Of a stretch of 64,000 nt of DNA, positions 1,095 through 45,500 are shown in pieces. Numbering within the stretch: the stretch's first letter is position 1; each line of letters opens with the position of its first letter. Position numbers and translations under genes: made by a program. Where the stretch lies: positions 5,828,001 to 5,892,000 of the forward strand of contig JAWMAR010000076.1 in assembly GCA_036785375.1 (NCBI GenBank). Direction: 5' to 3'. Below the pieces are notes generated by a model. It made no database searches. It had not been told where the DNA came from and saw only the letters and a program-made list of their open reading frames with translations. The DNA is from Leucoraja ocellata. Taxonomy: Eukaryota.

Positions 1095-1340
1095 GTGTTT
1101 ACATGAACATCGAATTCTCCCTATTTTGTTAGTCCTTGCTGTCTCCTCCCCTTCCTCAGTCCCCCTGCTGTCTCCTCCCATCCCCCAGCCTTCGGGCTCC
1201 TCCTCCTTTTTCCTTTCATGTCCCCGCCCACCCCCGCCCCCGATCAGTCTGAAGAAGGGTTTCGGCCCGAAACTTTGCCTATTTCCTTCGCTCCATAGAT
1301 GCTGCTGCACCCGCTGAGTTTCTCCAGCTTTTTTGTGTAC
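1095..1340 (+). mobile_element. Penelope-like element 3' fragment/pLTR with 14-bp TSD
   Basis: CTGCCTCATATGCA duplicated at 1081-1094 and 1341-1354; same sequence family as the GIY-YIG-bearing copy at 41.8-42.5 kb. Confidence 0.85.
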
Positions 1341-1469
1341 CTGCCTCATATGCACACTGATGATGGAGTGACTGTACCCCCACTCAAACCAGGACTTTCT
1401 CATCACTATTCTCCTTCATATAAATAAATTATATGATGTGACTGCACCGTACTGCGAGTGATGGTGCAG

Positions 1470-1680
1470 TCAGTGTGGTGAACCTGTGGAATTCATTGCC
1501 ACAGATGGTTGTAGAGGCCAAGTGTTTCTCAAGTGAAGATTGACAGGTACTTGATTATGGTGTAAAAAGTTATGGGAAGAAGGCAGGAGAATTGTGTTGA
1601 GAGGGAAAGATCAAACCAACCATGATTGAATGGTGGAGTAGACTTGGTAGGCCGAATGGCCTACTTCCACTCCTATGACA
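1470..1680 (+). mobile_element. Older CR1 3' end fragment
   Basis: gtggtgaacctgtggaattcattgccacag...ggccgaatggcctact similarity to the young CR1 3' end. Confidence 0.7.
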
Positions 1681-2090
1681 TACAAAATTATTGGTAACCC
1701 AGCATCATCACTGATGACCCTGTGTGTAAAATTAAACCATATGAAATTGAAGATAATATTCTATCATGATTGAAAGTTAATTGCTAGACAGGGAGAAGCG
1801 ATTAGGGATAATTGGACAAGAATAAATAGAATGCAGGGCATTCAAGATCATTACAACTCACTGTTTCCAAAAAAAATATTTTTGGCCTTTATAAACAGTA
1901 TCGCTATTCCTATCACATCCACTCATAGTTTTGTAACTTTGAATATCCCCTCTTAATCTCTTGTTGGGCTTTGCATCTCTGAGAACCATCTGTACTTTTC
2001 CAAACACTTCTTTACCCCCAGTGTGTTGTTATTAACTGTTAAACAAAATAATGTTAAAATAAAAATAGAGAGCAGTTTAATTTCAGTAGT

Positions 2091-2096
2091 TTTATT
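2091..2096 (-). promoter_or_regulatory. Probable polyadenylation signal of COL12A1
   Basis: AATAAA on the minus strand followed by a U-rich tract, at the end of a roughly 3.2-kb stretch with no recognisable transposon. Confidence 0.55.
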
Positions 2097-3366: not shown

Positions 3367-3506
3367 TTACACTTGACTAAATCCAGGCGACTGAATTTCA
3401 GATTCAATTTGGTCGATTTCTTCATCCTCTTCCCTTTCTATGGGAACAACACGGGTTTCTGGACGGTAGGGTTGTTGCTCGTAATGTCCTGGTTGGAAAT
3501 ATGGGT
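3367..3506 (-). CDS. COL12A1: Alternative terminal coding segment, long acidic NC1 variant (NPYFQPGHYEQQPYRPETRVVPIEREEDEEIDQIESEIQSPGFSQV*)
   Basis: Open phase-1 frame of higher GC inside an AT-rich UTR; resembles tetrapod long NC1; gag| acceptor with CTGAC branch motif 25 nt upstream. Confidence 0.75.
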
Positions 3507-5263
3507 CTCATATATCAAACACTATAATTGTCAGCCTACCAGTCCTCATGTGTAGACATGTACACATGTTGGACACAAAATCTTACAACATATTCATTTA
3601 TATATAATATCTATATATGTATACATTTATATGCATATTTTGATTTACATTCACCTGAAAATTAGTCTTTTGCACAGTTATACTATTTTCTAACAAAGCA
3701 ATGGGGAACAATAGAATTGCTTCTTTTTAACTCATCAGTAAGATTTGTTTAAACACCTTTTTCCTGAATAAAATAATTAAAAAAAATAAACCAAAACAGT
3801 AATTGAACATGAAGCATAACCATCATCACATTTGGAATTGTAGGGCAGCTTAAATCATGTGGTGCAACATACATAAAGGGATGCCCAATAAAGGACAAAT
3901 ATTTTGTTAAAAATTCTATGTAGGTCTGAGCATGATTAATACTCACACTGAATGTTCTGATTTTGAACTGCCCAAGGCTGTTAACAAATACCCACTAAAT
4001 ACAATTTAATAATATGAAGGCAATTGCAGTTTTAAATAGGACAACTAAGGGAAAATAGCAGACAGAAATACAAGGTAGTCATGGAAGAAAAAGGGGAAAT
4101 AAGTAAGAACAGTGGTGGATGCATTGCTCATATATTTGAGGCTCTAATTCACAAATCATGGGGGAATTTAGTTTGTTTGGAGTATGAATCAGAGGAATTA
4201 CCGATACTCTTACTCATGTTTGGCTGTGTGTGGCTCCTTACAAGAAGAACAGGGACAAACAAATTCAGACTTAGAAATTGTGGTATCATTCCTAGATTAT
4301 CACCACCTATGCAGCTGATAATATTACAACAGCAAAGCCATATTGTTTGTTTCTTATTGTTGTACAACCATTTTTCTAGTTAAACCAAAACATTTAAAAT
4401 ATATATATGCTCTGCCTTCATGGAGTCTGAAGTAAGTTATTTTGACCTCACTCCAGCTTAACCTGCATTTCTTCATGCCTATCGTGTCTTAGAGAAAGAT
4501 TTTGATGAAATATGTTTTGTTTTTGGTAGCAAAAAATGGCATTAGTGAATCAATAGCCCATTTAACTTTCAATCTAATTTTCGTTTCAAACTTTGTAAGA
4601 CGTTATCTGGCCTGTAGAACATATATCCAATTAACGATTGCTCATTGTAGATTACCAAAGACAAATTTCACACCTCTCTATGCTTCTATGATTCTTTTGA
4701 TTTATTTCAGTATTGTTGTATCAGTTTTTAGGGGGATACTTTAATGCAAGAATGGTTACTTTCTAAAGCAAATAGCAAATAGCAGGCCTGAATATAGAAG
4801 CTGATTTAATAGATATTACATCTGGTGTGGGTTGTGATTTAGATTGAACCATTGAAATGCCACAATTAGTTATTTACAGAAACAATACGACAAAATAATT
4901 TGAACATTCCAAGCTAAAAATCTATGATTTTGTTTGTTGTGGTTTGCAAAATAATACAACCTCCGTGGGGTTAGTTGTAATTTTAAGCTTTGTTCGTGTG
5001 TGAGATTTTTTTTGCTTCACGATGAAACAATCTTACTAGGACAGGCATCTCTGACGTCTGTTTCATATATAGAAATTGCAAACTCTCTTAGTTTAGTAGG
5101 TGTGATTTTCTTTCCTTATGAAGAACTGATGGTCAACAGAGTTCGTTAAATCAACTCCTGGTGAATTTTCCAAAAAGGCTCATTTCTTATTAAGATCGGG
5201 AACAAATATTTCAGAAACAGGACTTTTCGGTTTTTTGTAAGCATCATAGGTAGCTAGTAAAAT

Positions 5264-5274
5264 TTATCCGGAAC
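5264..5274 (-). CDS. COL12A1: Terminal coding segment, short NC1 variant (SSG*)
   Basis: ttcttaacctatttcag|GT TCC GGA TAA; phase 1 joins the previous exon; equivalent to the mammalian GYPGSG* ending. Confidence 0.85.
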
Positions 5275-8200
5275 CTGAAATAGGTTAAGAATGATATTAG
5301 TTTTGGGAAAAATAACTAAATATATATATATATATATATGTATATATAGTTTTCTCTTTTATTGCAGTGGCGAATAAACAAGATTTTTCTAATTTCTTTT
5401 AATTATTCAGTACAAAAATCAAACATGTTACATCACAATATTTAGACCATTAACATATCTGGGAAGAGGGTTAATTTTCTCTGTGCCCTAGTTGGTGTTA
5501 ATTCCAGGAAGCCTTTTTATCTACACCGATTTGGTTGTATCTTAAACACAGTAAAACTATTGCACTGAGAAAATTAAAGTCTCTTTTATTGATGTTTTTA
5601 TTGTATTTAACAACATTTGTTTAGTTTATTTTTTTTTTATTGGTAGTAAGTTAAAAAAAAAAACAACTTAGTTAGATTTTAGTATGTTTCAGCATTTTAT
5701 AAAGTTAATTTGTTCTCAAGATCTGTTTATGTTTCTTGTGAAGATTTTTTATTACTTTTCATTTATTTATTTTTGTTAAATTAGACTGCAAATTCAACTC
5801 TATAGCACTTTTAAAATAAACAATGGCTACAGTTGTAGGGTCAATATATTTTATCATCAGTTCATGGATTTATCTGCAATAATAAAGCTCTAATAATATT
5901 AATACTTTTGTTCACTCTGGCCATAGCTTTCTTTGATGATTAGAACGATTTCAGCTCAGATAGTTTGACCAAGTATATCACATTTTTGTCTGTTGGAGAG
6001 AAGGGGATCATCAAAATCAAAGAAATGAAAGTCCTGAACACCGATTACCAGGGAAAGGAAATCCCTGAACAGTTGAAGGAAAGTTTGTGGGACTGGCGAT
6101 TAGGACCGAGATGAAGAGAATGTTATTTCTAAAACCAATTATGAAATAAATTGGAGTTTAAATTGGAGATAGGATAATGAGAAAGGGAAAGGAATGCATA
6201 TTTTGAAGTGTTGAAGGAAAGGAAGTCCTGGAAATAGGGGTAGAAAAGTTATATTTGCATAGATTTTATAGTGGGAAAACTTTGAATGTACGGGGCTTTT
6301 AGGTGAGGTGAACCTCTGCATTCATTGGCTTTGTGAGGTTGGAAAATACTGCACTCGTGGTGTCAGTGGAGGAAGAGGACACTTTAAATTGGGGGGGGAA
6401 TGTAGCAATGCCTGAGTCAAAGCTATGATATTTTCTATTCCTATCAAATCAGCCACCTTCCTTCCAATGCGAACAAGGCCAGCCTATTTAATCACCCAGC
6501 ATAACAAAAGTAAATATTAAGCATAATTTTAGTCTACCCTATATTTTCTAAACTATTGAAGAATGGGAGATAATCTCATTAAAACTTGTGAATTTAATGT
6601 GAGGTTTTGATGGGATAGAGTACATTACTAGAAAATCAAGAGCAATAGAAAATAATCTGAGAATTCTCGTTTAGTTGTGATTCTTTGAAACTCCCCAAAA
6701 GACTATGGAAGCTCGGTTATGAATACATTAAAGACGATTAAATAGATTTCTAGGACCAAGTGAATCAAAGGATTTGTAAAGCCTATGGGCATGGGGTTGA
6801 AAGGCTAATGGGAACAGCATTGAGAAGGGAGAAGGGTAACAATTGTGGGTTTAACAGATGAGGGGCAGTGTTGCTCATATTAGTATATATTTTTTATGTA
6901 TGAATAACAAAATTGCAAAACAGGAACAATAATGCAAGTAACCCAGTGGACAGAAAGTGCTTAAATGAAAATAGAGTGCTGCGAATATTATGTAAAATTC
7001 TAGGTTTCTCTTTTGTAGCAGTCAAAAGTTGTTAGTTATCTTTGCATATACTGTAGATGGTGAAAGTAGTTTTCACTTTGAGGTGAATTGTTGCAAGCAA
7101 TGGTAACAGGTTTTTTGCTTCAAGAAAGACCAGATACAGTCCTGGTGAAAATAAGCAGTTATTTTGACAGGAGTGATAGAGATATATGGCATGTCCTGTC
7201 ATACAGTAATGAGGGGCAGGTAACATAAGCTTAAGGAACATCACCTTATCTTTCAATTAGGCATATTACACCTCTCAGGACTCAATATTGAAATCAGCAA
7301 TTTTAGATACCAGACCTTCCAGTTTATATCAGATCTGCCCAGTACTAAAAGTGTTTTGTACCATCATCCCTTGTCATTCGTCTCCTTCTAATTACATCTG
7401 TTCCAGACTGATATTAAAGGCTTCACCACTTTCTATCTGCTAGCACCAGACTGTTTGCATTATTCAATCTCTCTTTGTCATTGCTCAGTCATGGTAATTC
7501 CCTTTGCCCTCTCCATGCCTCTTCTTAAAAGCAAATTTGTTTTTAACTTTTCCTGGTTCTGATGAAAGGTTAATCTTAAATGTTAACATTGTTTTTCTCT
7601 CCACAGATGTTGCCAATTCTGTTCAATGTTTCCATAATTTACTTATTTAATAATTTTGAAATGGATATCACTCTCTGTATTCCATGAGTATTCCATAGAA
7701 ACCTTAATTGGAGTTTCAAAAGTGGCTTTCCAGTTGTGACTTTCCTGAAAGATTCTCTTCCGTTGGTGTTTCCTTTCTCACTTTCTTTCTCTCTACCTCA
7801 TCAATTGTGGCATATGGTCAACTGACATTATTCCAAAAAGTGACACTTCTCACAGCATGAATTAGTGATCACTGCTGAATTACAGAATTGGAATATTTGA
7901 CCATGTTTTCTTTCCTGCAGGCGCATGTAACTTAGAGAACCACAGGCAAAAATCTGAGATGCAAACAATGAATTGGAATAGCTAATACTTTTTTCTTATG
8001 TTTCTTATTGTGCCTGGCGCAGAGATAGAAGGTTATTTGACCCAATGTTTCAAAGCTGCCTCTTTTGAAGAACTTTGCAGTGAGGCCCACTCTGACACTC
8101 TTTTCTCTTAGTTCTATAAGTAATTCCTGTTACTGTTGAATCTGCTACCACTGCTCTTTAATGTAATGTAAATCAGATCATAGCTTTTTTTCTTATATTC

Positions 8201-8659
8201 CTTCCATTCTGAAGGAAAAAATGTTAAATTTATGTCTTTGAGAATGGAAAAGGTTATTCTTATCTACTCAAAAGCACTCAGAATTTTGAACTTAAAAAAA
8301 AAATCTGCTCGAATCATCTCCATCTCTCTTGTTCCTTAACATAACAGATTACTAAACTCTGATATTGTTCTTTTTTTCAGGATGTTTCTCAGGATGACCT
8401 CTTATTTCATGCCAGTTGGTGTGTCTATCTCAATACCTCTTAAGCATTTCTATTGTATTTGGTTCTATGACCATACTTGGCAGTGCATTCCAGGGACTTA
8501 CCACTCTTTGAGTAAAAAAACACTTATCTCCCACATCTCTTTTAAAGCTTCTCTCTCTTCTCTTAAACCTATGCTGTTAGTATTTTAAATTTCTGCCTTG
8601 GGAAAAATACTTTGAAAGATTCAACCCTATCTAAGCCTTGCATTATTGTATATGTTTCT

Positions 8660-9256
8660 AGGAGTAAAGAGGTTCTTCTGCAGTTGTATAGGGCTCTGGG
8701 TGAGACCACATCTGGAGTATTGTGTACAGTTTTGGTCTCCTAATTTGAGGAAGGACATCCTTGTGATTGAGGCAGTGCAGCGTAGGATCACGAGATTGAT
8801 CCCTGGGATGGCGGGATTGTCATATGAGGAAAGATTTAAAAGACTAGGCTTGTATTCACTGGAGTTTAGAAGGTTGAGGGGGGATCTTATAGAAGCATAT
8901 AAAATTATATAAGGACTGGACCAGCTAGATGCAGGAAAGATGTTCCCAATGTTGGGCGTGTCCAGAACCAGGGCCACAAGAATAAAGGGGAGGCCATTTA
9001 AGACTGAGGTGAGAAAAAACTTTTTCACCCAGAGTTGCGAATTTGTGGAATTCCTTGCCACAGAGAACAGCAGAGGCCAAATCACAGGATGGATTTAAGA
9101 TAGATCTTTAGGGGCTGGTGGAATCAAGGCATATGGGGAGAAGGCAGGCACGGGTTATTGATTGGGGACGATCAGCCATGATCACAGTGAATGGCGGTGC
9201 TGGCTCGAAGGGCCGAATGGCCTCCTGCTGCACCTATTTTTTATGTCTATGTTTCT
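8660..9256 (+). mobile_element. CR1 LINE 3' fragment, abutting an older minus-strand CR1 remnant at about 8380-8655
   Basis: [17 protein letters not shown]; tail ttatgtctatgtttct. Confidence 0.9.
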
Positions 9257-10049
9257 TTAAGGGGGAATCTATCCAGTAAGTGCCTGGCAATTATATACTT
9301 TAAATAAGTGCAATGTAATATGAGTGAATTTCAGAGATATAATTATTTGCCAAGATAGTGTTGCAGCACAGAGTTATGTGTCATTATTATCATCAATAGA
9401 AATATATTACCCTTTAATCATCATATAATATTCGTGTTTATGTCTTTATCCAAAAGGATCTTAGAATTGTTTCTGGGAGCTATTCGGGTCTGTTAGACTG
9501 ACGCACTAGGACTTGCCTGTCACCTTACCCTTTCCATTCATTCCCTTTGTTTCCCACTAACCAGACTGCAAATATATAAAAATGTTATCCAGTGTGTAAA
9601 CCACTGGCCACAAGTGACTTAAGAGAAATCCAGATTTTGCATCTGATTAATAGATAACGAGAAGTATTTGGTAATGTGGTTATGGATATGTGTTTGTTTA
9701 ACATAACTATGGTTACTGAATGATAATAATTGTTAATTTAAAACACATTTACTGAAACTGTGTGAATATGTGTGAAGCACTAAAATTAATGTATGTAACT
9801 AAATATAGCCACAACAGTGACCAGTCAACACTTTCAAATGAGTAACATTGATTTAGCTATGCATTTCATCATCCATGAAAACATCTTAATTTTCTGTGGA
9901 AAGAATTGCCTGTCATCCTGCCAGGAGGATACAATTCAGCTACCATGCAATTCCTGGAGAATCTCAAACAATCAGAGAGCCTTGACAACCCTAACTGTGG
10001 TCCTCACTCGCCTTTGGACCTGATAGTCATGTGAACCAAGCCACAGATG

Positions 10050-10181
10050 GACACAAAATGCTGGAGTAACTCAGCGGGACAGGCAGCATCTCTTGAGAGA
10101 AGGAATGGATGAAATGGGAGTTATTCCAGCATTTTGTGTCTATCTTCAGTTTAAACCAGCATTTACAGTTCCTTCCTACAC
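10050..10181. mobile_element. Short fold-back Penelope-pLTR derivative
   Basis: GACACAAAATGCTGGAGTAACTC ... GAGTTATTCCAGCATTTTGTGTC inverted arms. Confidence 0.7.
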
Positions 10182-10875
10182 ATTGAATTAAGCCACATCC
10201 TGGCTTCACAAATCCTTCTAAATAAAATTATTAGTGGAAAAAGATCTAATACAGGTGCCATACCATGACAAATCACTTCTTACAGATAACATCTCTGCCA
10301 AATACCACAGTTATTCCACGCTCTCTTATTAAAGTGATTTGTTAACTTATGTTGTTATTTCAGTTACTTGTTGGTTTAGCCATCTGTTTAAATTCAGATT
10401 TATACAAGCAGCCACAGGAGCAATAAAAAAAAAATTCCAGTAACTGCTTTCATTTGCAAAAAAATGATCAATGTTATAACACTGCAATTAATATTTATTA
10501 TGTTCTGGTTGACCTATCGATAAATAAATTGCATACCACAGGACAGAATGGTCGACTGATCACACTCCAGTTTTCTGAAGCTTAAACTATTCATTTGTCA
10601 AATTGATGGTTGGTTTACAAGCTTCACCAGAAGCCTATTAGTTTTTAGTACCTTGATTTACATTGTTAATTACTATGTTAAAAAGTCATATTTTTAAAAA
10701 TAAAAGTTATCTTTTAGAAAAATATTTATAGCATAATTATAAAAGTAGTTAAAGAAGTTCTGAATTTACCAAATCAACAGGAGTTTATTACGAAAAGGTG
10801 TTTAAAAACTATTGTCAGTTATATGATTTCAAAATACAAAAATTTGCATAATTAACTTTCAAAAGTATAACCTAC

Positions 10876-11040
10876 TTGGATATCCATTGTAAGGGATGCC
10901 TGCACACATTGAGGAGTCGCAGTAACCAGGAGGGCCAGCTGGACCTCTAATTCCATAATGTCCTTGACGACCAGGTGGTCCAACGGGTCCCCTTGGACCT
11001 GAACCACCTGCCGGACCAGTTCTTGATTCTCCTGGTGGGC
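10876..11040 (-). CDS. COL12A1: COL12A1 exon, end of COL1 and start of NC1 ([12 protein letters not shown]...[20 protein letters not shown])
   Basis: 165 bp, ttatag| and A|gtaggt; FACIT C-x4-C motif and GESRTG imperfection. Confidence 0.94.
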
Positions 11041-11394
11041 CTATAAAGAGAAAACAGACTGATCATGCCTGGTCCAGAATAATGTTAATATTATTTCCCT
11101 GTTTCAGTTTCATTTCCTGTTTCAGTTTAATTTCCTGCCTCAGTTTCATTCGATCTCTATTATGTCTCATCCTTTAATTACCTCAGCAAACCCACAACTC
11201 TGTTGGAACACAGAACAGTGCAGCTCAGGAACAAGCCCTTCAGCGCACAATGGCTGTCCCCAACTTGATACCACTTCAAACCAATCTCCTCTGCCTGCAC
11301 ATGATCTATATCCTTCCTTCCATCCACCAATTAATGTACATATCTAAAAGCCTCAAGGTTACAAGGGAGGTAACAAATAAGGTTGATCAGGGTT

Positions 11395-11755
11395 GTATTT
11401 CAAGTAGAACTGCAGATGCTGGTTTGCAAAAAAATGACATAAAGTGCTTAATTAAGCGGGTCAGACAGCATCTCTGCAGAACATGAACAGGTGACGTTTT
11501 GGATGGGGGAGTGAGAAGCTGAAGGAGAGGGGGCAAAACAAAGTCTAGCAAGTAACAGGTTCATACGGGTGGGGGAGGGGACTAATAAGCAGCTGGTTTG
11601 ACAAATGCTAAAGATGAAACCAAAGGTGTGGACAAAAGGATTGAACAGTCGTGAATTTAAGCTGGAGGTAAGAATGTAGGTGGAAGGGGAGGGGCCAGGG
11701 AGAAACAGGTGCATGTCCAGATGGGGCACAGGGAGGGGAAAGAAGGGTGGAAATG
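11395..11755 (-). mobile_element. Decayed Penelope-like pLTR
   Basis: gaactgcagatgctggtt...cagacagcatctctg motif followed by a purine-rich tract. Confidence 0.6.
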
Positions 11756-11759
11756 TGCA

Positions 11760-12326
11760 CAGCTTTACTGGGCACAGCTTCAAGGTGAGAGGGGCAAAGT
11801 TTAACGGAGTTGTGTGAGGCAAGTTATTTTAGACAGATTGATAACAGGGGTGGTGCTGGATGTAGATATTATGGTTAAAGAGGCTTTTAGATTGGTGCAT
11901 GGATATCCAGAGAATGGTGGGGTAAAGATCACAGACAAACAGAAGGGATTAATTTAATTTGACATTATGTTCACCACAGACGTTGTGGGTCGAAGGGCCT
12001 GTTCTTGTACTGTTTGGTCTGTGTTCATGCATGCAGAAACGTATATCCATATAAAAGTTATTGTTTACTCTAAAAGATGAACTCACTTCTTAATATAGCA
12101 CACAGAGGATGGTGGGTGTATGGAACAAGCTGCCAGAGGAGGTAGTTGAGGCAGGAACTATCCCATCATTTAAGAACCAGGTGGACATGTACATGGATAG
12201 GACAGGTTGGGAGGGATATGGACCAAGCGCAGGCAAGTGGGACTAGGGTAGAGGACATTGTTGGCCGGTGTGGGCGAATTGTGCCGAAGGGCCTGTTTCC
12301 ACTATGTATTAATCTATGACTCTATG
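11760..12326 (+). mobile_element. Two tandem older CR1 3' fragments
   Basis: ggaacaagctgccagaggaggtagttgagg; gaagggcctgtt; (actctatg) tail. Confidence 0.7.
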
Positions 12327-13930
12327 TACTAACAGTGTATGTGTATCCATATATTTTAGAATGGGGAGAATACCCACAAGCATAATAATATTTCTGATTA
12401 TGCACTGAATAGAATATGAGCGCCACTAATGCTGGTGACTTTATTTTACTATGTAGAATGGGATCACCCTTTTTTTCTTATTTTTTGTTTGAATGGATAT
12501 TGTAAAATCCCGAGTTATTAAATGAAATCAGTGCGTATGTACATTGAAACACTAGTGATTTAATATATTTTCTTTTCTCGTCCTCTTTGATAATTAACTT
12601 GCAAAACTTATGTCTAACCCCAGAACAGCCTGGCAGCTGTGCCTCTTAGTGTCTAGACTCCGTCCACATAATTCAAGAACTGTCTTCTGTAACTTTAAAC
12701 ATATGTTTTAAATTAAGCTACAAAGCTAGGAGCCCTTCACCCAACCTTCATGAGGTCTTACCTGCCCCTTACCCCTCCCCCCCCACCCCACCCATCAGCT
12801 TTGCTCCTGAAAGGAAAATGAAAATGTCTTATCACTGTATAAGTGACTCATGTACCTCCCCCCCCCCCCCCCCCCCCCATTTTCCAAGATCAAATTACTC
12901 TCATATAATTACTAAATTATTCACTTATGGCACATAGACTCAATATGCTACAAATGAACACATGGCAAATCAAAATCTCTTTAATTTACAGCAGGAATGT
13001 GAGAAAAAAAGTTTTGCTTTAAATTATGAGCTGTGGCTATTTTGGTTGATAGCCTACCTTAAACAAATAAAACAAGCAACCACCTATGCCTCCCTAAAAC
13101 CCAAAAGGGGATGATGTAATATTTATGTTGGATTGAGACATTTCAAGGATAACAGAATAAATCAACCTCGTAGTGTTGAAGACTGAGAAAACCATATGGA
13201 TTCCAGATCTTGTGTTTCTCAACAAAATAATGCTTAAATAACAGTAATATAATTCGAAGGACATGGTATGTTTCAATGCTCAATGAATTGTTGTACATCA
13301 GTGACACACCTTTACCATAAGAAATGTTCTGTGAATGATGTTTTCAGAAAGGTTTGAAAAGAGAGACTTGGGGGTTAGTGGGTGGGGGGGCAGTGAAATT
13401 AAAAACCCTGGAAGCTGCTGCCTGTAACCTAGGGAGAAATCATATCATCACCATTTTCCTTTGTAAATGATTTACTATTACAAACTAATGAAGCTCATTA
13501 GTTTATACTGTTGTGTGGTCTGGACATGTTATTTCAGGCTTTGTCTAACTGAATTATTGTTAACATGGGGCAGAATATTTCAGGAAGAAATTTGGAGCTA
13601 TTATGTGTTTTTGTCAGGGAAACTGAGAATTCCTCGCCAAAATATTTCAGTACAATGGCTCAAAAATTAAAAATTAAATTTCCCCAAATCTACTTAACGT
13701 TAAATTGAAATAAATTGCAAAATCATGATGGTGAGCCAATTCACCATAACCCATTTCACACAATCATTGAAAATTGTAGTATCTCCATGATATTGGCATT
13801 CAAGCTAAATAGTAGAGCAATTTGATTTTAATTCATAAATCCCCAACCAATTTGGAGCAATAAAATCTGCATCACGTAAATTGCATTCCTTGCTCATTGG
13901 AAATATTTCTTTATAAATAAACCCACATAC

Positions 13931-22850: not shown

Positions 22851-22859
22851 AAAGCATTC

Positions 22860-28725: not shown

Positions 28726-28729
28726 TATC

Positions 28730-32757: not shown

Positions 32758-32811
32758 AGGTGATCCATGTAGTCCTCTGTCTCCTCTGGGACCTTTGCCA
32801 CCAATTTGACC
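32758..32811 (-). CDS. COL12A1: COL12A1 exon, COL2 (GQIGGKGPRGDRGLHGSP)
   Basis: 54-bp Gly-X-Y exon, tttacag| and |gtaagt. Confidence 0.92.
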
Positions 32812-33253
32812 CTGTAAATGAGAGACAACACAGATAAGATAAACAAAATGCTTCTTTTAGTCTATGCACTTGAATTACTTTCTTTCAAGATTTTCCCTAG
32901 CTCTTAAAACTCCCCAGAAAAGCACGGGGTACATATGAGATTATAAGATTTGATATGCCAGGAGACTAGTGCAAGTCTATATGCAGCAGTGGAATTAATA
33001 AATACAAAACATATGTCTAAAATTGCTGGCTCAATATACTCTGTTTGCTTGACATTGGAATTATCATGACTTTACTCCTCTTGAATTTAATGATATACAT
33101 ATTCACAAATGTTCCCTGTAAAATTTTGCTGTTGTTAATTCCGTTGCAAATCCCTCTCTCTCTCTCTCTCTCTCTCTGTTTCCCAGTATTCCCACAGATC
33201 AGAATTATATAAGATACATAAGGAAGACAAGAAATAAACAAATATTTCCTTAC

Positions 33254-33340
33254 AGCAGGTCCGGGAGGTCCTGGAGGCCCTTTGCTGTCTTGAGAACATG
33301 TGCAAGCATGCGGAAGGGCAGGGCATTTTGCTTCATCTCT
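33254..33340 (-). CDS. COL12A1: COL12A1 exon, NC3/COL2 junction ([29 protein letters not shown])
   Basis: ttttcag| acceptor, GCT|gtaagg donor, 87 bp. Confidence 0.94.
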
Positions 33341-33939
33341 CTGAAAAACAAACAAAACAGCAACCATCAAATTATGGAACAAAGTGTCACAAAAAGAACA
33401 ACATTTTTAAAAAACGAATCTATTTCCTAATCAAACCAATGGCTGTTGGCTATGAAATTCTGAAAACAAATTGAACTGCTATATCATTCAAATTAACTAA
33501 AGCAGAGATATTAATGGACCTTGTATGACACTTTTTTCTGGTAGCTTTTAATCAGTATTTTCATTTGCACATGCATTTGTTGGCAACATGAATAATACCT
33601 CCATGCTAAACAAGCAGCGAAGAAATAGAATTGACCTGAAAACAGTCAATAGTGATTTATAAAAAGGTTATGTATGAAGGAACTGCAGTTGCTGGTTTAA
33701 ACCGAAGATCGACACAAAAAGACCCGTCTCGATCCGAAATGTCAACCATTCCTTCGCTCCAGAGATGCTGCCTGTCCCACTGAGTTACTCCAGTTTTTTT
33801 CATTTTTTAAAGGGAGTTGGACACCTGAGGGCCAGTACTTTAGAGGGATACAAGAGTAAAAGAGGGAATGAAACCAAATCATTTGATTTACAAGAAGCAT
33901 ATTCTTCCAGTATATCTGAAAAAATAACACGGAGGCACA

Positions 33940-34926
33940 TGGAAGCAGAAGAAACTGCTGATGATGGAATCTTGAGTAAAAAACAAAGTGCTGGATATTA
34001 GGCAGCAATTGTGAAAGGAATGGACAGACTACACATCAGGTCATTAACCTTTTACAGATAGATTGGACTGGCAAGGAGAAAGCTGGAAAAAGGAGGTGGA
34101 GGTTGGGCAAAGTCTGGATACAGATGTAGGGAGGGTGGTTAGTGATGGGTGGAGTAGGTAATACTGCTGCAAGGTGAAAAGGAGACAAGGGGGTGTTAAT
34201 CAAGGAAAGAAGAGAAAGAGTGAAATGTGAAGCTGGAGAGAGGGATTTACGTTTGGGCTCGCCAATATAAAGGAGGCCAATACTTCCCTTTTTTCCTCAT
34301 TTTTTGCCCGGCTACCCAGGTCCCTCCATCCAACCAGATTCCTCACTCCAGCTTATCAGACTGTCTTTCCTTATTGAACACTCTTTTGTCTCCCTTTCAC
34401 TTCTACCCTTATAGAAACATAGAAACATAGAAATTAGGTGCAGGAGTAGGCCATTCGGCCCTTCGAGCCTGCACCGCCATTCAATATGATCATGGCTGAT
34501 CATCCAACTCAGTATCCCGTACCTGCCTCTCTCCATACCCCCTGATCCCCTTAGCCACAAGGGCCACATCTAACTCCCTCTTAAATATAGCCAATGAACT
34601 GGCCTCAACTACCCTCTGTGGCAGAGAGTTCCAGAGATTCACCACTCTGTGTGAAAAAAGTTTTTCTCATCCTGGTTTTAAAGGATTTCCCCCTTATCCT
34701 TAAGCTGTGACCCCTTGTCCTGGACTTCCCTAACATCGGGAACAATCTTCCTGCATCTAGCCTGTCCAACCCCTTAAGAATTTTGTAAGTTTCTATCACT
34801 TGTTCCACCCATATACCGATAATAATCCCCTACCCCACCTCTATTGCAACTTTCTCCTTCCCATTCCAATCAATCTGAAGAAGGGTTCTGGCCTACTGAA
34901 TACCTCCAGTACATTATTTTTTGCTC
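33940..34926. mobile_element. Fold-back Penelope-derived element, arms about 33960-34250 and 34330-34926, right arm interrupted by CR1
   Basis: aaggtgaaaaggagacaag versus ttgtctccctttcactt and further reverse-complement blocks. Confidence 0.6.
34411..34796 (-). mobile_element. CR1 LINE 3' fragment, young subfamily
   Basis: Reverse complement of about 22455-22835; (CATAGAAA)n tail. Confidence 0.92.
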
Positions 34927-35370
34927 GTGGAAATACATGAGTTAATTTACTCAGATACCCAAATTCAACCAATCATTCAGAGCAGATTTTTGAACCACCC
35001 TTTTTGTGTTTGTGTGTAGTGTCAATTTATAGTTTAAAAAAAGGTCAATATTTTGTGCTAGTAAGATTGCAACACCTCAAGCCGTGTAGCCAACCTTAAC
35101 ACTATTATTCGTGATCAAAACTATGCTCCCTTCTCATACTTCTTGTTATTCAGCTGGATTACTCTTGACAATAATCAAATATTCCCTTTTCTCCAGGTTA
35201 AAACAAACCAAATGGAAGAATTTAAACAAAATAGCATTTTGTTTAATATCACAATAATTACATGCAGTGTAAATGCCTAACAGTTGAATCAGGGAAGAAT
35301 TAAATCAAAGGAAGGAACTCAAGCAATCACAACCTGACAATCTGTCATCTGCTGGGTATTAGATACTTAC

Positions 35371-35448
35371 CATGGAAGGGATGTCGCAGCATTTGTCTCT
35401 TATGGCCCAGCCCAGACTGCAGATGATATCAAAACTTTGGATCTCGAA
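35371..35448 (-). CDS. COL12A1: COL12A1 exon, end of TSPN (FEIQSFDIICSLGWAIRDKCCDIPSM)
   Basis: ttctag| acceptor, ATG|gtaagt donor, 78 bp; FACIT CC motif. Confidence 0.93.
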
Positions 35449-37314
35449 CTAGAATTGAGAGAGAAAAAAATGTTTTATAAGCACATAGCAAGCAGTTGCT
35501 GCAGCTGTATAAACTTTAATTCACATAGCAGTTGTATAAAACTTTGCTTAGTCCAAATTTGAGTACTATGCAGTTTTGGTTGCTGCATTATTGAATGGAT
35601 ATGGATGGTGAAGAAGACATTCACTCGATCATAAGGTCATAAGTAATAGGAGCAGAATTCAGCCCATTCAAGTCTACTCCGCCATTCAATCATGGTTGAT
35701 CAATCTCTCCCTCCTAACCTCATTCTCCTGCCTTCTCCCCATAACTCCTGGCACCTCTGGATTGGATATTATCTATCAGTTAATATTGGACTAACTTTGA
35801 TTGTTTTTTCTGGAGTTTTGAAGCCTGAAGGGTGAATTATATAAAAGTGATAGAAGTATATACAATTTTGAGAACAATTTATAGGGTAAATAGTCAGAGT
35901 CTTCTCAGGGTAAAAATGTCAAATACAAAAGGACATAGCTTTGAAATGAGAGGGGGGAAAGTATAAAGATTTGCTCAACAAGCTTTTTTGAGAGACCGAT
36001 AGGTGCCTGGAACATGTTGCCAAGTGAGGTGGTAGCAAATACAATATCAACGTTGAAGAGGCATTTAGACAAACTGTCAGAGAATAGAGGGATATGGACC
36101 CAGATGGGGTTTGTTAGATTGGCATTATGGTCAGCATGGATGGAAGGGTCTGAAGATGCAATCATGTATTATGTAATCATGTAATCATACATATGTAATC
36201 ATGTATTATCTTTCTGCTGACTGGTTAGCACGCAACAAACTGTACCTCAGCACAAATGACGATAAACACAACTGAACTGAACAATATCCTCCAGAGATGT
36301 TGCCTGACCTGCTGTGTTACTTCAGCACTATTTTTCGAAACTAGCATCTGCAGTTCCTTGTGTCTCCCAATTTGTATATGGTTTGAGCAATGTCAAGGAT
36401 GGTGAATGCAGTAGACTAGATTTGAAAAAGCGTAATTGTTGCTTCACCCAGTTTGTGCTCCTGGCTGCTGGGAAGGGAAAAATGAAATGAATGGATTAGT
36501 ATTGCATCTCTTCTTACTGCGAGGGAAAGTGTCAGTGGAGGGGGCGAGGTGGGTCTGGATGAAAGTGTGGATAAAGTAGTGACAGAAAATAGTCCTTGCA
36601 AGACACAGAAAGGAGATGAATAATTTGTTGAATGTTATGGCTGGTGGTTGGGGGGATACCAGGGGAACAAGATGCATGTTTGTGTGCCCTCAATTCTGGT
36701 TGGAAGTATTTTGTGCCGTGACCACTGGAAGGAAATCACAAACTCTCTAGGCATACAACATCACAATACATTATCACTAACACATGGAGATGCAGTTTAA
36801 ATCTGTTCTATCTCTTTCAGACAGCACGTGATATTAACTTTGCAAATTGAGTAAGTAAAGAGGGAAGGGCAAGGCAAATGAAAAGGTAGTTTGATACAAA
36901 GAGTGGAGGGGTAAGTTGTAGATTTGCTAAAAATAAATATCTTTATTTTTTATGTATGTCTCTATTCTCTGACAGCATCATCTTGGGTTCTTGGTTGATA
37001 TACATAACCCCATGGGCCCTGAATAGGTAGTGTAAGCCACATTGAGAAATTAAACTGATGAATAACATTTGTATGCAGCAGGGAGGAGGAAATGTGCTAT
37101 CTGATATCTATCACTGGCACAGACTGTGCCATTACTAATTCCGTTTCAGATTGAAGCTAAGGAGAAAGGACCTAATTTCAAAAGTTACTTAATGTTCCGC
37201 GATTGCATAAAAATGAATTGCAAACCAACAATCTGGAAGGAATGTTTATAAATGAGCATCGAACACCATAGTGAATGTAATTTGCTTTTTAACAATAAAA
37301 TGTACACCACTTAC

Positions 37315-37473
37315 TGCAGCAGACTTGCCCTTTGGCCCTCGAGATTTAACCAGTTTTCCAAGGCTTTCATATCCATTTGTTGTTATATTGCCAGGTGGGT
37401 TTGCCATCTTCTCTTCAATTTCTTGACAGTCCACGATCAGTTTAACACTGTTTTGATTTACCAAAATATGAAC
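37315..37473 (-). CDS. COL12A1: COL12A1 exon, TSPN (VHILVNQNSVKLIVDCQEIEEKMANPPGNITTNGYESLGKLVKSRGPKGKSAA)
   Basis: tgcacag| acceptor, GCA|gtaagt donor, 159 bp, phase 0. Confidence 0.93.
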
Positions 37474-40400
37474 CTGTGCAGGAAATATTTAAAAATATAT
37501 ATTTGGGTCAATGTTTATCATTGTCAATTGGATACTTTCTTGCAGTCACAAAATTGAAGGATTGATTGAAGTCTGTGTTCCTTTCATCCCCTGGGCCTCC
37601 AATTTTCATCATCTAATAGTTCTTTGCCTTAAGCTCTGTAATTAAATATCAGATTTCACTTACCTAGTCACAGATTTATTTTCCATCACCACTGGTAAAT
37701 CTGCCTTCATTTCTAGCTTATGAGATTTACTACTTGTTTAAGATAATCCTTAAACCCATACCTATCACAAGATTTTTGTTCCTTGCTTCTACCAAATGTC
37801 TCTCCCTCAGGATCTGAAGAAGGGTCTCGACCCAAAACATCACCCATGCCTGTCCCACAGAGTTACTCCAGCATTTAGTGTCTCCATCAGGATCATGTCA
37901 TCTCATGTTGGAGGTCCCAGTGACCTATATATATCTTGGGCCTATTTATATTTGACCCAATATATCTTGGGCCTCTCTAACTCACAACCTAGGCCAACTT
38001 ACCTTTCTCTGCAGATTCCATGATAGTAGAAGCAAAATATAAGTCTTTGAGTATCTAAGGCCTTTATGTGCAACATAATTTTTCAGCAGCGGACCCCAAA
38101 ACATGTTGTTACTCTACCTTCAAATTCTATTTAATGTTCACATGGGCATTTAGTCAGTGACATAAAACTGGAGAATTCAACTGGAGAATTGGGTTGTAGA
38201 CTATCCAAATCGAATATAAGGTGGTGTTCCTCCAGTTTGAATGTGGCCTCACTCTGGCAATGATGGAGGCTGACGAGGTCAGTAAAACCTATTCAAGCCT
38301 TTGAAGCAATGAAATAAAGAGTTTTCCATTGAGTCTTCAAAGGTTGGATTGATGAAGGTGCAGTAACTGCCCTCAGATAAAATTAGTAAACAATCAACAG
38401 GAAGGTGTTGATGAAGGGTGTTAAGTGGAAACGTTAGCAGAAGGAAAATTAAGAGGCAGAAGTGAACAGAGTCTACTGAGCTTCTAGGAAAAGCAAAATT
38501 ATGACATCAATTGTGTCTCATATGATCTGTAGGAAAACGAGATAAAAGATCTCTTCTTGAGCACTCAAAGTACTAACCTATACAACATGAAAGATATAAG
38601 ATACCTTATGGTCTTCCGTATAAAGAAAAGACCAAAAATTGAATGCTAAAAATATAATGGAAGAGGAACATTTGCGCAGAAGACCGAAAAACATGATTAA
38701 GGAGAAAGATATTGTGGCAGTTTTCTAAAAGCTTGAAAAAGGTGCAAGATAATTGGATTAGGCAGGGGTCGAACGTATAAGTAAAATAAGTTAAACAATA
38801 ACAATTTGTTTAAAGGGTTTTAAACTCTGACAAAGACTTTGAAAGTTTTTCAGTCATTAATTAATGAAATATCAGCCAATATGTTTCAACCATACAGCTG
38901 GAGAATGCAAAATATCAGTCACGATTTGGGGAAAATCAATGGTGAAATTGACCGTATTTTAAATTTTATTTTTCGAGTAAAATGGTCGAGTGCCATTTTA
39001 AAAGTACTTCCTTATCCTTTCTAATTCTTTAATGGGATGACAAATTTTGTTTTCTGGCTTGAAACCTCTTAGTCAAAATCCAAATCCAGTTAGGATTGAT
39101 GTTTATCTCTGAGATTGAGATTAGGACCACCATGAGTGGAGGTGTGTCCAATATTAAAAACTCCATAAAATGAAAAACAATTTCAGGAACTGGAAAATGC
39201 ACTAAAAGTATTAGTCCACTCTGCTGATTAACTGATTACCTGCACTTTTTGACTATTCATACTGTTTTACCAGGGACTGGATTGTTTTTATTTTATGTGT
39301 AAAATGTTTAGGTTTTATGTGCGATGCTCCGGTATTCCCTGGGAAACGTCTTCTCATTTTGCACTGTACCTGTTGCTTTGCAAGATGACAATAAAGGTTG
39401 ATTGATTGATTGATTGTTTGATTTAATGGAACCCTGTAAACCAACTAACATTATAATTTTCAGTCTTTTCAACTTTTTAACTAAGCCCTCTTCAAACAAT
39501 CCTCATTCAACATGTTTTCGTCATTTTCACTCAGCATTTTTGTTTGTTTAAACTGCATGCTTTTAAGTAATTTTGGCTGGGTTCTTAGTATATGAATGCT
39601 TTATATTCTTTACAGCTGGCGACTTTTTAAACTGCTCTGTCAGTACTATGGCAATGAGGATTTTGAAATCTCTGTGTTTATCTAGCTCATCCTCAACAAG
39701 GTACTTGCTGGGTTGGCTCTCATCCATCAAAAACTTTATTTAAAAGATTCAGCTGTTCTTACCATCTGCTGCCTCCTGCAATGTGAATGGAAAACCCATG
39801 TAATCAAGCACATTCAGATCTCAATCTCTCAAAATTGTTTTTTCCTGAAAAACAAATTTCCCCTTGATGTTGCTTTGCAGGATATCACTGAGTTGAATAG
39901 CTCATATTATCAATCCCTGACGTGACCCCGTCATTATAATGCAAATGTCAGTGCACAAATTGGCAGCATTCCTACATATATTATAACAGCCCCTATACTT
40001 CAATTGCTAAAAAAATATTTCAGTCAGCCTGCGGTTGTGATATGCTCTATGTAAATACAACTCTTTCCTTAAAGTAGTTATAACTTAAGTGCATTGCACT
40101 CAACAATATTATGAAAATAGAAGCAGATGACTAGTGTTCTGGAGCTGAAATCTGTAACTTATTTACAAACTACTCAGTACTTTTCTGTCAATCTCTGACA
40201 CACAAATTTATAAAATCCCATAAGGAACATTTGGAAATTATTCCAAAGACATCATTAGTCATTCAGGCATAAATCCATGGTATCTCCAATCTCCAAACAA
40301 ATAATTTATGTTTCCCTTCATACTACCCATTCTGCCAAGTCTTACTGCACTGATGACATAAGATTTGGAATGAAACCAACAGGGATCTTAAAACAACTCT

Positions 40401-40719
40401 GTCCCAAAATGACTATCACCAGTGGTTTGATAGGTAAATGCAAAGCTTGATGTAACTGAATTTATAAAGGTCTTTCTCTTCTGTGGTCCCTCCGGATTGA
40501 GGGTGACTTGCGTATATCTAATCCAATGCAGTGAGTTCAGAGTTGATTGATGAGCCCCATTGTGGGACATATGATTCAGCTTGATGGTTTGAGTGCATGG
40601 GTGGTTTGGGAGGTGGTGAACTCTTTCCATTATTTTGATGCACCACCATGTGCTTCCAATGGAGATATTCAGTGCCATCTCACATAGGTAGTTGGGGCAT
40701 TATGTTAGACCTGTAAAAG

Positions 40720-41250
40720 TAATTGATAATACCTCGATTGGAGTATTGTGTACTTTTCTGGGCACTCTTATAGGAAGGGTGTCATTAAACTGGTAAAAGA
40801 TGCAAAATTAATTCATGAGGATGTTACTGAGTTTAGAGGGTTTTGAGTTATAAGGAGAGGGAGGATAATTTGGTTTTATTTTTCCTGGACCAGTGGAGGC
40901 TGAGTGATGACCTTACAGAGGTCCATGGAATTATAATGGGCACAGGTGGGTGGATATCTACAGTCCTTTTCCCAGGATAGGAGAGCTTTAAACTAAAAGG
41001 TTTACATTTAGGATGAGAGGGGGAAATTTTAAAGGTATTTAAGGAGCAACACAGAGATTGATGTGTGTATGGAACAAACTGCCCGAGAAAGTCATACAGA
41101 CAGAAACAATTAAGACATTTAAAAGACACTTAGATGGGTACTTGGATAGGAAAGACTTGGAGGGATTTGGAGGGAACCAGGCGCAGGCAAGTGGTAACTT
41201 GATTAGCATGGACGAGTTAGGCCAAAGGGCATGTTTCCATGCTATGTAGT
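40720..41250 (+). mobile_element. Decayed CR1 3' fragment
   Basis: ttggagtattgtgtac...tggaacaaactgccc...ggccaaagggcatgtttcc. Confidence 0.7.
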
Positions 41251-41269
41251 CCTACGATGCTCCTCTAGC

Positions 41270-41470
41270 ACACCAAGGAAATCAAATTTTCAAGGAGACT
41301 AAAAACATCCTTGAAACATTTCCTTTGACCTGGTAATCGTTTGCCATGACAAAGCTTGACGAAGAGTACTTTTTTTGGAGTTTAGTATTAAACATGTGAA
41401 CAAGTGACTAGCCCACTTGAGATGGCTCAATATAATTAGAGCCTCGATGCTGAGGATGTTGGCATGAGAG
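41270..41470 (-). mobile_element. RTE-clade LINE remnant
   Basis: Minus-strand frameshifted IEALII..HLKWASH motif typical of the RTE ORF C-terminus. Confidence 0.5.
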
Positions 41471-41820
41471 AATTATACACTTCATCTGGCAGCTCATTCC
41501 ATATATAATGATCCTCTGGGTGAAGATGTTTCTCCTCAGTTCCATTTTAAATCTTTATACTCTCACCTTAACCCTCTACTACCTGATTCCACTACCCTGG
41601 AAAAAAAACTGTGCAAGTTCACCCTATCCATTCACCTCATTATTTAGCAAGTGCCAGTGAATGAAGAAATCAAATTGCTATTCCAGAAACATACCTATAG
41701 GATGAACAAAGCTTGAAACGAAATATTCCAGAGTATTCAATACAAAGGAAGGACGGAAAGAGTTAAGCAGATAGACACAAAAGGCTGGAGTGACTCAGCG
41801 GGCCAGACAGCATCTCTGTA

Positions 41821-42528
41821 AACAAAAGTGCTGGAGAAACTCAGCGGGTGCAGCAGCATCTATGGAGCGATGGAAATAGGCAATGTTTTGGGCTGAAACC
41901 CTTCTTCAGACTGATGTAGGGTGGGGGAGGGGGGGACGGGGAGAAGAAAGGAGAAAGGAAGAGGAGGAGCCCGAGGGCTGAGGGAGAGCTGAGAAGGGGA
42001 GGAGACAGCAAGGGCTACCGGAAATTGGAGGTCAATGTTTATGCCACTAGGATGCAAACTGCCCAAGCGGAATATGAGGTTCTGCTATTTCAATTTCCGG
42101 TGGTGCTCACTCTGGCCATGGAGGGGGCCCAGGACAGAAAGGTTGGATTTGGAATGTGAGGGGGAGTTGAAGTGCTGAGCCACAGGGAGATCAGGTTGGT
42201 TAATGTGGACCGAGCGGAGGTGTTCGGCGAAACGATCGGCAAGCCTACGCTTGGTCTCATCGATATAGATCAGCTAACATCTAGAGCAGCGGATGCAATA
42301 GATGAGGTTGGAGGAGATTCAGGTGAACCTCTGTCACACCTGGAACAACAGCTTGGATCCGTGAATGGAGTCGAGGGGGGAGGTAAAGTGACAAGTGTAG
42401 CATCTCTTGTGGTTGCAAGGGAAAGTGCCCGAGGAGGGGGTGATGCGGGAGGGAAGGGAAGAATTGACCAGGGAGTTACGGAGGGAGCGGTTTTTGCGGA
42501 AATCAGACGGGGGGGGGGGGGGGGGGGA
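41821..42528 (-). mobile_element. Penelope-like retroelement fragment with GIY-YIG endonuclease coding region and pLTR
   Basis: Minus-strand CNHKRCYTC...LIYCIRCSRC...IYIDETKRRLADRFAEHLRSV; pLTR with hammerhead-like motif at about 41885-41912. Confidence 0.9.
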
Positions 42529-45500
42529 GATGTAGAAAAGGAATGGGTGATGTTTCGGGTCAAGACCCTTCTTCAGATTGAAACATAGAAACATATGGGC
42601 CATTCAGCCCAACGAGCTAGCACTGCCATTCCTGCTTTCCCCCCCTATTCCTTTATTCATTTAACCATATAAGACCTAAATCCAACTATCTCTTGAAAAC
42701 ATACAGTGAATTTGAAGAAGATTGGAATCTGAAGAAGGGACTCAACCCAAAATGTTACCCATTCCTTTTCTCTAGAGATGCTGTCTAACCCGCTGAGTTA
42801 CTCCAGCATTTCATGTTTATCTCTGGTTTAAACCAGCATCTGCAATTCCTTCCTACACACTATGGAAAGTAAAGAAGGTCTGATTGTGCTATTAATAAGG
42901 GATGATATCAGTACAGTTCAGCATGGCTCAGTTAGGTGCAGCTAAGAAGCAGCTGAGGGCAGTAAACATTGTTGGGAGTTGCCCAACAATCTCCTAGCAG
43001 CTGGCTTGATGTAGGCGGGCTGTTCCCGTACTGGGGATTCCTCTCAGAGGCCCGCATCAGATGGCGGGGGTGGCGGGCACATCCGCCTTACCGCATTTTC
43101 GGCAGATTTGGCAAATTTCGGGTTGGCCCTGTAGTCCTGCTGTGAAAACAGCTTCTCTGTCCAGTGGGCAGCTGCTGATCTGCCCCTCATTAGGACTTAC
43201 GAGGACAACTTGCTAAGTGGCACCTCGTGCCTATGCTAGTTTCGCTGTAAAGTTTACATTTATAATTTGTTTTATTTTAGTCTCTAGCAATCCATGATGC
43301 TTTAGAGACATGGGAGGGATATAATTAGTGGGTCAGCAGTGTATTGCTGTATTATTATTATGTGACCTCTGTTGGTCCAGCAAAATAGATTATATAGAAA
43401 GGCTCTGGAACTTAGGGTGCTGCAAAATCGGTGGTGGACCTGTTTTAACAATGTAGTGGTGAATTCCTGGTATGCAGATGAGATAGATTTCTGGATCACC
43501 GTAGTGAGGAACAATGAGGAAGCAGACTGTTTTAGATTGGCATTGCTGAATAAGAAACTTCAGTGAATCTTTGTACAGCTATGCTCAGGAGAGCTGTTGA
43601 AGTCAGGCATTGATTGCATTCACAATAGATCTTGATACATTTCCGAACATTGAAAGAATCAAGAACTAAGGGGATGAAGCTGGAAAATAGCATAATTTTG
43701 TTAACTGGCAGAGTCGTTTAAGGAGCTAAATGGCCTTCTCCTGTTTCTGTCTCTTATATTTTTCTGCTCCATTTTGTTCCTGCTATTTCCAGCTCTAATT
43801 ATATCTACTGAGCAAAAAGACAATTGAAGTTGTCCACAGGAAAGAGGTGCATATTTTTTCTTTAGAATGTTGTGAGACTATATTCCTCATAATTCCTCTT
43901 TGAAGACTTTTAAGCCAGAGCATATGAAAGGTTACTGTGGATAGATGGGAATGCAAAATTAGATTCACTCAGCCATAATCTTGTTCAATGCAGAGTAAAC
44001 TCGAGGAGCTATTGATTTATTTTGACTGTATTATCTTATCAGATTTGTTTATCATATTTGTACAACTCTCTGAATGTTATCATTATGATTATGATAGTTC
44101 AACTGTTTGTGGAAAACCATGTTTCAGGTCCAAGTGTGCATTATTGAAAAGAAATAAGACAACAGAAGGAAAATGAGAGAGGGGGAAAGAAAAACAAACT
44201 TTCATTCACATCGCATTCTTCAACCTGCAATAGCTCTTACAATGGTGACTTTGGGCAGTTCTAAGAAAGCAAAGCAGGCCATTTGCACACAGCATGCATT
44301 CACACTTAACAATGAGATAATGGTCACCACATCTGTTTTGGTATTGTTAGAGGTATAAATATTGGCACGGATAAATGGAACACATTCCGACTCTTTTTCA
44401 TTTGTATCGTGGGATCTTATGCAAAGAAAGCATATAGAACCTTGCCTTAATGTCTCATCCAAATGACAAGCTGGTATTCCAGTGGTCTCTTTATACAGCA
44501 TCTGGTTGGATTATGTCCATAAGTTTATGGAGAGGGACTAAATGAAATGAGAGTCATCTCACTGATCCTTGATTGACACGATTAAGAAGGAACACAAACT
44601 TTAACATGCAGCAAGGCTGATATCATCAGGAAATACAAAATAACAAATCATTTTCTGAATCCTTTTACTCGACTCCACATGCCATTAATCAACTCCTGGC
44701 AGTCTATTTTAAAAGTAGAGATTATTATTGGATACTTGTATTGCAAGCTCATATATTTTAAAATGAATGCAACAGATTTTCCACAATGCATTTTGATAGA
44801 TTCCCTGTTGGACTGTGAAGTTATAACATTGTTAGATAATCTATTTGATGGCTACCTTCATCAGCGGCCGCTAGAATGACAAATCTGTACAATCATGCAA
44901 CAAACTGATATGCAAGAATAGAAGAAAATAGAAGCGAGTAGGTTACATGGCAGCCTGCCCCATCATTTAGAATGATCATGGCTGATCTATGCTGACTTCA
45001 GCTCTTGAGCCATTTCTACACCCTCTACTCAACGATCAATCAAATATTTATCCTCCAGCACTTAAAATATTTTCAGTGCTCCAGCTTCCACTACTCACTA
45101 GGGAAGATAATTTGAGACATTTACAATCCTTTGTCAGTTTTAAATAATGGGCCACTGTCAAGCCTCCTTAATCTTATCATTCTATTATATATTTCATTTT
45201 TTAAACTCCTGGTAAAATATGCCTAATCAGGATCTGCTCTGTCCAATTGATCACTTTCTTCCTTCCATCAACCAGAGAGTATTTTCCACATAGTATCCAG
45301 CTGTCCCACCATTGTGGCTTAATTATCTCTTTTTAGTAAACTTTCTCAGATGCTGATCACCATTTGTGCAAAGAAACCGTACTGTTGGCTTTAACCATAA
45401 AGTGATCTAATGACCGTAATAGCCTTGGCATTAGAGTATACTTTCACGAGTATAATTTCACAATTCCACCAAAAGAACCTAGCACACTTCTACAATACAT

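Follow-up and report, generated by a model that had tools for sequence, protein, structure and literature searches.

We analysed a 64,000-nucleotide stretch of the genome of the skate Leucoraja ocellata (assembly GCA_036785375.1, contig JAWMAR010000076.1, positions 5,828,001 to 5,892,000; hereafter the window, numbered from its first letter), which holds the 3' part of the collagen XII gene COL12A1 and, scattered through it, copies of a short hammerhead-ribozyme motif. These are confirmed as genuine copies of the hammerhead-type motif of a very abundant Penelope-type element, a class of motif already known since 2014 (PMC4209133). The copies in the collagen introns are likely inert passengers, decayed end-pieces of a Penelope-like retrotransposon, and the front edge of the motif, where most short copies begin, is probably where uncut element RNA starts. 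We hold this reading as a whole, that of decayed stubs lying inert in the collagen introns and derived from uncut element RNA starting at the motif edge, with good confidence.

A minus-strand exon in the window matches collagen XII, best the catshark protein (80% identity). Because the COL12A1 exons lie on the minus strand, the minus-strand copies of the motif, with core position C3 at 28536, 41909 and 42576, are sense and intronic, as an original prediction made from the letters of this DNA had proposed. The remaining eight copies that it named are antisense to the gene, with C3 at 1249 (past the stop), 22925, 29821, 37814 and 42729 in the younger ones. The motif or a decayed form of it is present at all 11 named sites, and the minus-strand copy that had been placed at 41885-41912 exists but lies three bases away. 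The gene and the named copies are as follows.

3370..59872, minus strand: COL12A1, 3' part, 17 coding exons placed by the catshark protein, from 59872-59729 to 3492-3370.
28509..28536, minus strand: best sense copy, in the intron between the exons at 32107 and 28233, within a minus-strand stub at 28466-28543; all catalytic letters present, a U-G palindrome (AUGU) through 15.2 C>U, a stem II of 4 base pairs (bp) and a stem I of 2 bp.
41818..42516, minus strand: 5'-truncated Penelope-like element, 83-86% identical to other copies, with Zn-finger linker, broken GIY-YIG stretch, pyrimidine tract, motif and 3' end.
41882..41909, minus strand: sense copy ending this fragment; G12>A and 16.2 G>A.
42549..42576, minus strand: sense copy with the palindrome lost to 16.2 G>A (ACAU) and a 1-bp stem I, predicted to pair over its full length with the inverted copy at 42729.
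42729..42756, plus strand: antisense copy, head-to-head with 42576; G12>A and 15.2 C>U, stub to about 42864.
1249..1276, plus strand: antisense copy beyond the last coding exon, at the end of element fragment 1102-1342; 16.2 G>U.
22925..22952, plus strand: antisense copy; 15.2 C>U, stem I of 2 bp.
29821..29848, plus strand: antisense copy closing element fragment 29589-29915; G5>A.
37814..37841, plus strand: antisense copy; G12>A and 16.2 G>A.
7559..7584, plus strand: older antisense copy that retains CTGATGA, with G12>U and a 3-bp stem I.
29024..29117, plus strand: older antisense copy of the subfamily with GTC/GAC stem I; core broken.
59952..60050, plus strand: older antisense copy with ctgtc/gacag arms; core broken.

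The earlier caveat that every named copy carries at least one lesion was borne out. The canonical CTGATGA claimed for copy 7559 is there, in a core otherwise damaged at G12, and the stem I arms claimed for the copy near 59960 are there too, in a broken, antisense copy of a subfamily in which only three pairs are general. A profile built from 10 window copies, which match it by construction, gave 22 matches in the window at E<=1, 21 of them at E<0.01, and each of 10 shuffled controls gave 0-2 weak matches of at most 13.4 bits. An Rfam scan of the window returned no match to a hammerhead family at E<=5, and the Rfam models would not be expected to fit minimal motifs that lack loop 3.

In the family, the motif reads CUGAAGA, one extra A, a stem II of 4 bp with a 4-base loop and the G10.1-C11.1 pair, GAAA, CG, and UC or UU, with loop 3 absent; these letters and this layout support the minimal type I hammerhead architecture that had been proposed. 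The palindrome 15.1-16.1 is ACGU in the family majority, and among the eight young window copies named above only 29821, itself G5>A, retains it. The core letters of the group (CUGANGA, extra base, GAAA-NN-UH) are present, and catalytic letters are intact in four window copies (1249, 22925, 28536 and 42576). An exact 28-base pattern of the intact core matches the 3.44-Gb assembly 30,380 times and never when reversed, and two patterns anchored downstream have 45,814 and 21,228; such counts exceed the number of insertions, because near-identical stretches are duplicated in the assembly. Many loci form pairs that are 95-99% identical (at C1 ~0.07-3.1 Mb, L001/L016, L003/L014 and L009/L012; also L051/L053 and L056/L057), so that both haplotypes are probably present in parts of the assembly.

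Stem I is the weak part of the motif. The family has U-A or U-G, then G-C, then A-C, and among 140 copies with an intact core the stem is 2 bp long in 96 and at least 3 bp long in nine. The strict descriptor of minimal hammerheads requires a helix I of 3-7 bp (PMC4209133, Fig. S7), above the 2 bp of this family, and the 2-bp variants listed in the same work are composed of two G-C pairs. The family is thus one that fits the broad group of Penelope hammerheads and fails the strict 3-bp descriptor. A consensus without a good stem I, which the original prediction had named as evidence against itself, is largely what we found, at 2 bp in the young subfamilies. The covariation of stem II that it saw between these subfamilies proved one-sided in their majority lines, which differ by U-A versus U-G in the stem and C versus U in the loop (mean divergence from their own majority lines, 5.6% and 8.5%). 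An older subfamily carries GUC/GAC arms in stem I, and its core reads CUGAUGCA in 36 of 41 matches, off the canonical core. In 27 copies of it scored (3 of 30 rows were dropped), with the first two pairs imposed by the search pattern, pair 3 forms in 18, pair 4 in 7 and pair 5 in 5; a long stem I was accordingly rejected for this subfamily, only pair 3 being general beyond the imposed ones. In two intact young copies, the predicted fold pairs the core with a CU-rich stretch downstream, and the probabilities of stems I and II are close to 0. Separately, at loci L294-L296 the 33-base hammerhead core by itself is repeated head to tail two or three times, which makes a natural tandem, and RNA reads of related species contain backward joints of 32-34 bases across the motif.

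The parent element can be read from the window and from elsewhere in the assembly. In the window, copy 41909 comes after the broken GIY-YIG stretch. Elsewhere we found 30 loci with the 5' part of the element's frame, including tandems (L107/L108 and L126) and full-length copies that start at the motif itself (L104, L109, L121 and L125). Tandem copies, together with full-length copies starting at the motif, place it in the pseudo-long terminal repeat (pLTR), supporting the Penelope pLTR origin suggested at the outset; this is also the place described for metazoan Penelope elements (PMC4209133). The element shows a reverse transcriptase (RT) with a DKG motif, a CX4CX2C linker and, at the C terminus, a GIY-YIG domain; Pfam returned RVT_1 at E 3e-7 and 1e-6, and GIY-YIG at E 8e-4 in one of two proteins, below cut-off. 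A CX2-5CxxC linker is a mark of Neptune and Nematis elements (PMC8557442), and from its motifs the element would be a Neptune-like Penelope element, or possibly a Nematis one. Several copies have structures of their own. Internally deleted elements (L102, L103 and L109) have the 5' part of the frame joined to the motif at the same front edge, and insertions that fold back perfectly, with their centre in the stem II loop or at -2, are found at L206, L223, L224, L228 and G000:C2:4466262-4466327. In L108 (607 and 630-675) a donor-like CAAG|GTATG stands about 160 bases past the motif, and RNA depth drops after about 675; a 5' untranslated region intron or a third 3' end is possible there.

The original prediction had inferred that sense copies in COL12A1 introns could cut the nascent RNA. 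What the three copies look like does not support this: each is lesioned, stem I is 1-2 bp long, and the predicted folds bury the core. G12, an invariant position of the hammerhead core, is changed to A in copy 41909. The predicted cost of opening the core from the local fold is 7.4 kcal/mol for copy 28536, 30.8 kcal/mol for copy 42576, which is paired with the inverted 42729 copy in the pre-mRNA, and 8.7 kcal/mol for the third, and no plausible dimer was predicted between any two sense copies. Published minimal hammerheads showed no activity when monomeric and low activity when dimeric (PMC4209133), and the one from Anolis needed its element's protein in order to cut (PMC11167929). A host-domesticated intronic ribozyme is likewise not what the window holds, every sense copy being lesioned with its core predicted to be buried.

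In favour of the cutting of nascent COL12A1 RNA by dimers, formed within the pre-mRNA or in trans with other element RNAs, copies 28536 and 42576 retain all catalytic letters, their decayed palindromes AUGU and ACAU are complementary (predicted duplex -0.3 kcal/mol), and motif-bearing RNA is abundant in related species, at a depth of 1,350-6,900 per strand column on the stub. Against this, the two copies are separated by 14 kb and five exons, the predicted hairpin locks copy 42576, their heterodimer would total only 4+2+1 bp of pairing, and predicted homodimers are unfavourable (+2.6 and +3.4). Motif copies across COL12A1, with a duplicated stretch included, show no significant strand bias (15 sense versus 22 antisense, p 0.32). 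Depth over unique COL12A1 intron bins was near 0 in three RNA runs and one contig set, too thin for this locus. If such cutting did occur, breaks in pre-mRNA would arise genome-wide from a very common repeat; the evidence here goes against it, and we regard it as very improbable.

The evidence on how the stubs arose comes from where they begin. From 144 copies, picked by an anchor downstream of the cut site, 19 duplicates were removed (12 of 91 and 7 of 53), leaving 125 junctions whose positions were counted relative to C3. Forty-nine of these fall at -6..+2, 35 at +3..+45 and 41 further upstream, with only three at the cut site (+28..+30); some junctions of subfamily A within +3..+45 are misplaced by gaps, and its count of 0 at the cut site is approximate. 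Compared with a uniform spread, p was 5e-12 and 2e-8. A repeat resembling a target duplication was seen in 14 of 42 edge copies, as compared to a mean of 0.96 in 500 shuffled pairings. Genome-wide, in one subfamily and with two non-element letters required ahead, -2 is the start of 3,839 copies, the cut site that of 463 and the control position +33 that of 289, or about 6,900, 1,340 and 715 after correction by hand for the base composition of the flanks. In the RNA reads of related species, loose ends accumulate at the 5' edge as well as at two 3' ends separated by about 35 bases, there is no pile of molecules beginning or ending anywhere on the element, the cut site included, and the element's open frame is barely covered. 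By eye and without statistics, a G precedes the start in 40 of 100 rows and GG in 21, where base composition would give about 28 and 7; a cap would fit these figures. A dominant edge with few starts at the cut site suggests that uncut RNA was the template.

From these junctions a mechanism can be proposed. Element RNA would start two to three bases before the core (-3/-2), at an initiator-like TCAGT, and such a start would leave room for a stem I of only 2 bp. The edge sequence TCAGTCT fits the initiator consensus. The pLTR of Penelope in Drosophila virilis contains an internal promoter that includes an initiator (PMC2377424). The RT would then prime at internal sites, some 95 or 130 bases downstream, in the way shown for an Anolis element, and run off the uncut 5' end, giving many stubs of 100-135 bases; cleavage, if any, would require a pair of intact motifs within the element's own RNA, and probably its protein as well. 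More broadly, and with a little less than even confidence, we propose that stubs in the tens of thousands may be a fossil record of the Penelope cycle, in which capped RNA from -3/-2 is primed internally in the first pLTR and copied to its uncut 5' end, a short circuit that would explain both the single minimal hammerheads littering animal genomes and the 2-bp stem I.

Several points weigh against this account. The start site is read from DNA ends, the junction sample was drawn from one contig, and the folding models leave out tertiary contacts and proteins. Nine of the 42 edge copies adjoin an inverted partner. After the hand correction, cut-site starts are about 1.9 times those at the control, a ratio resting on one control place and on patterns that differ in CpG, and two of 79 sampled copies start exactly at +29; some templates may therefore have been cut before copying. 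The RNA libraries, poly(A) and single-cell, are poor at showing cut ends. Finally, much the same edge would result if the RT stopped or switched templates at the hairpin, or if the CAG served as a splice acceptor, and these are live rivals. A pyrimidine tract and CAG, as in a 3' splice site, do stand before the core, both the edge and the stem II loop have fold-back junctions, and there is a precedent in the D. virilis intron that ends at helix I (PMC4209133, PMC2377424). The edge copies lack a common upstream exon, target duplications adjoin the edge, and no splice joint into the edge site was present among the 15 best-supported of 125 joints, so that we consider an origin of the edge in splicing or in RT stalling unlikely. 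Splicing that would complete stem I was also considered and rejected, as no candidate donor in L108 improved the 5' arm and the edge copies share no upstream exon.

The small excess of starts at +29 bears on a further possibility, that in the element the motif of this family works as a ribozyme under tight control, shut as naked RNA, opened late by the element's protein and cutting a minority of molecules. The core, the G10.1-C11.1 pair and the ACGU palindrome are kept across subfamilies that otherwise differ, the GAAGAAGG half of the core is the part predicted to pair with the CU-rich stretch in the two intact copies, and the Anolis motif is protein-assisted (PMC11167929). On the other side stand a family stem I of merely U-A or U-G plus G-C, where the published 2-bp cases have two G-C pairs, and the mostly non-canonical core of the older subfamily. 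We give this possibility somewhat less than an even chance; it is compatible with inert copies in the introns.

The window contains further remains of the element, found beside the named copies.

18679..18774, minus strand: further decayed sense stub with five core lesions.
56896..57127, minus strand: further element fragment, sense; core broken.
10053..10115, minus strand: sense stub without core, from the profile search.
11450-11504 and 41780-41821, minus strand: other partial stubs.
27212-27253, 33721-33800, 34869-34894, 36287-36332 and 62326-62378, plus strand: other partial stubs.

Other repeats and the host gene itself account for the remaining observations. Frames at 53966-57489 on the minus strand, in a long intron and adjoining the Penelope fragment at 57015, resemble what we take, from their translations, to be a long terminal repeat (LTR) retrotransposon of BEL/Pao type. 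The stretches 121-676, 8627-9094, 19428-19853 and 21563-22745 are presumably 3' fragments of CR1/L2-type long interspersed nuclear element frames, and an open frame of 980 residues of CR1/L2 type is found in L058/L059. The last coding exon of COL12A1 (3370-3492, minus strand) follows a 7.4-kb intron and matches the long C-terminal tail of a catshark collagen XII isoform. Past the right end of the window (L064-L070; 65.6-129.2 kb in window numbering), a set of eight COL12A1 exons with their intron repeats is present in two copies, spaced about 38 kb and with the same identities, which could be either an assembly duplication or a real partial duplication of the gene.

The window copies themselves matter little, since their class was described in 2014 and they are decayed. 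The useful part of the finding is that the family supplies thousands of junctions indicating that the RNA that was copied was mostly uncut, where the role of the Penelope hammerhead is called unclear in PMC8557442.

Going by its title, work by Lunse, Weinberg and Breaker concerns the same class, small variants of the hammerhead in Penelope-like elements, and the same need for dimers in cleavage. The closest likeness to the skate motif is with the minimal hammerheads of metazoan Penelope pLTRs (Cervera and De la Pena 2014, PMC4209133), which share CUGANGA with an extra base, G10.1-C11.1 and GAAA-CG-UH without loop 3, as well as the pLTR location and mass dispersal as single motifs. Those hammerheads occur in fish Xena, Poseidon and Neptune elements; in supplement file 2 of that work, and for that file only, the words 'shark', 'Callorhinchus' and 'Leucoraja' are absent from the text. 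The skate family differs in its weak 2-bp helix I, under the descriptor minimum, and in number, with 30,380 exact matches here as compared to about 4,000 descriptor hits in coelacanth and 9,000 in Xenopus there. The Poseidon element of Anolis carolinensis (Frangieh et al. 2024, PMC11167929) likewise has a pLTR hammerhead, two 3' ends one tail length apart, no RNA ends at the cut site and uncut RNA as template; it belongs to a different clade, whereas the skate element has the CX4CX2C linker, and the activity and priming sites of the latter are inferred. With the Neptune and Nematis endonuclease-containing (EN+) elements (Craig et al. 2021, PMC8557442), the skate element shares the RT with DKG, the CX2-5CxxC linker and the C-terminal GIY-YIG, together with partial tandems, inverted 5' copies and a tail of 30-40 bases. 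Non-LTR retrozymes, reported in one cartilaginous fish, are also derived from Penelope pLTRs (bioRxiv 10.64898/2026.07.22.740005). Theirs are tandem arrays with a hammerhead in each unit; in the window the copies are single or in inverted pairs, and only short repeats of the 33-base core were seen, at L294-L296. The skate copies are dispersed stubs, single or inverted, that come from an autonomous element.

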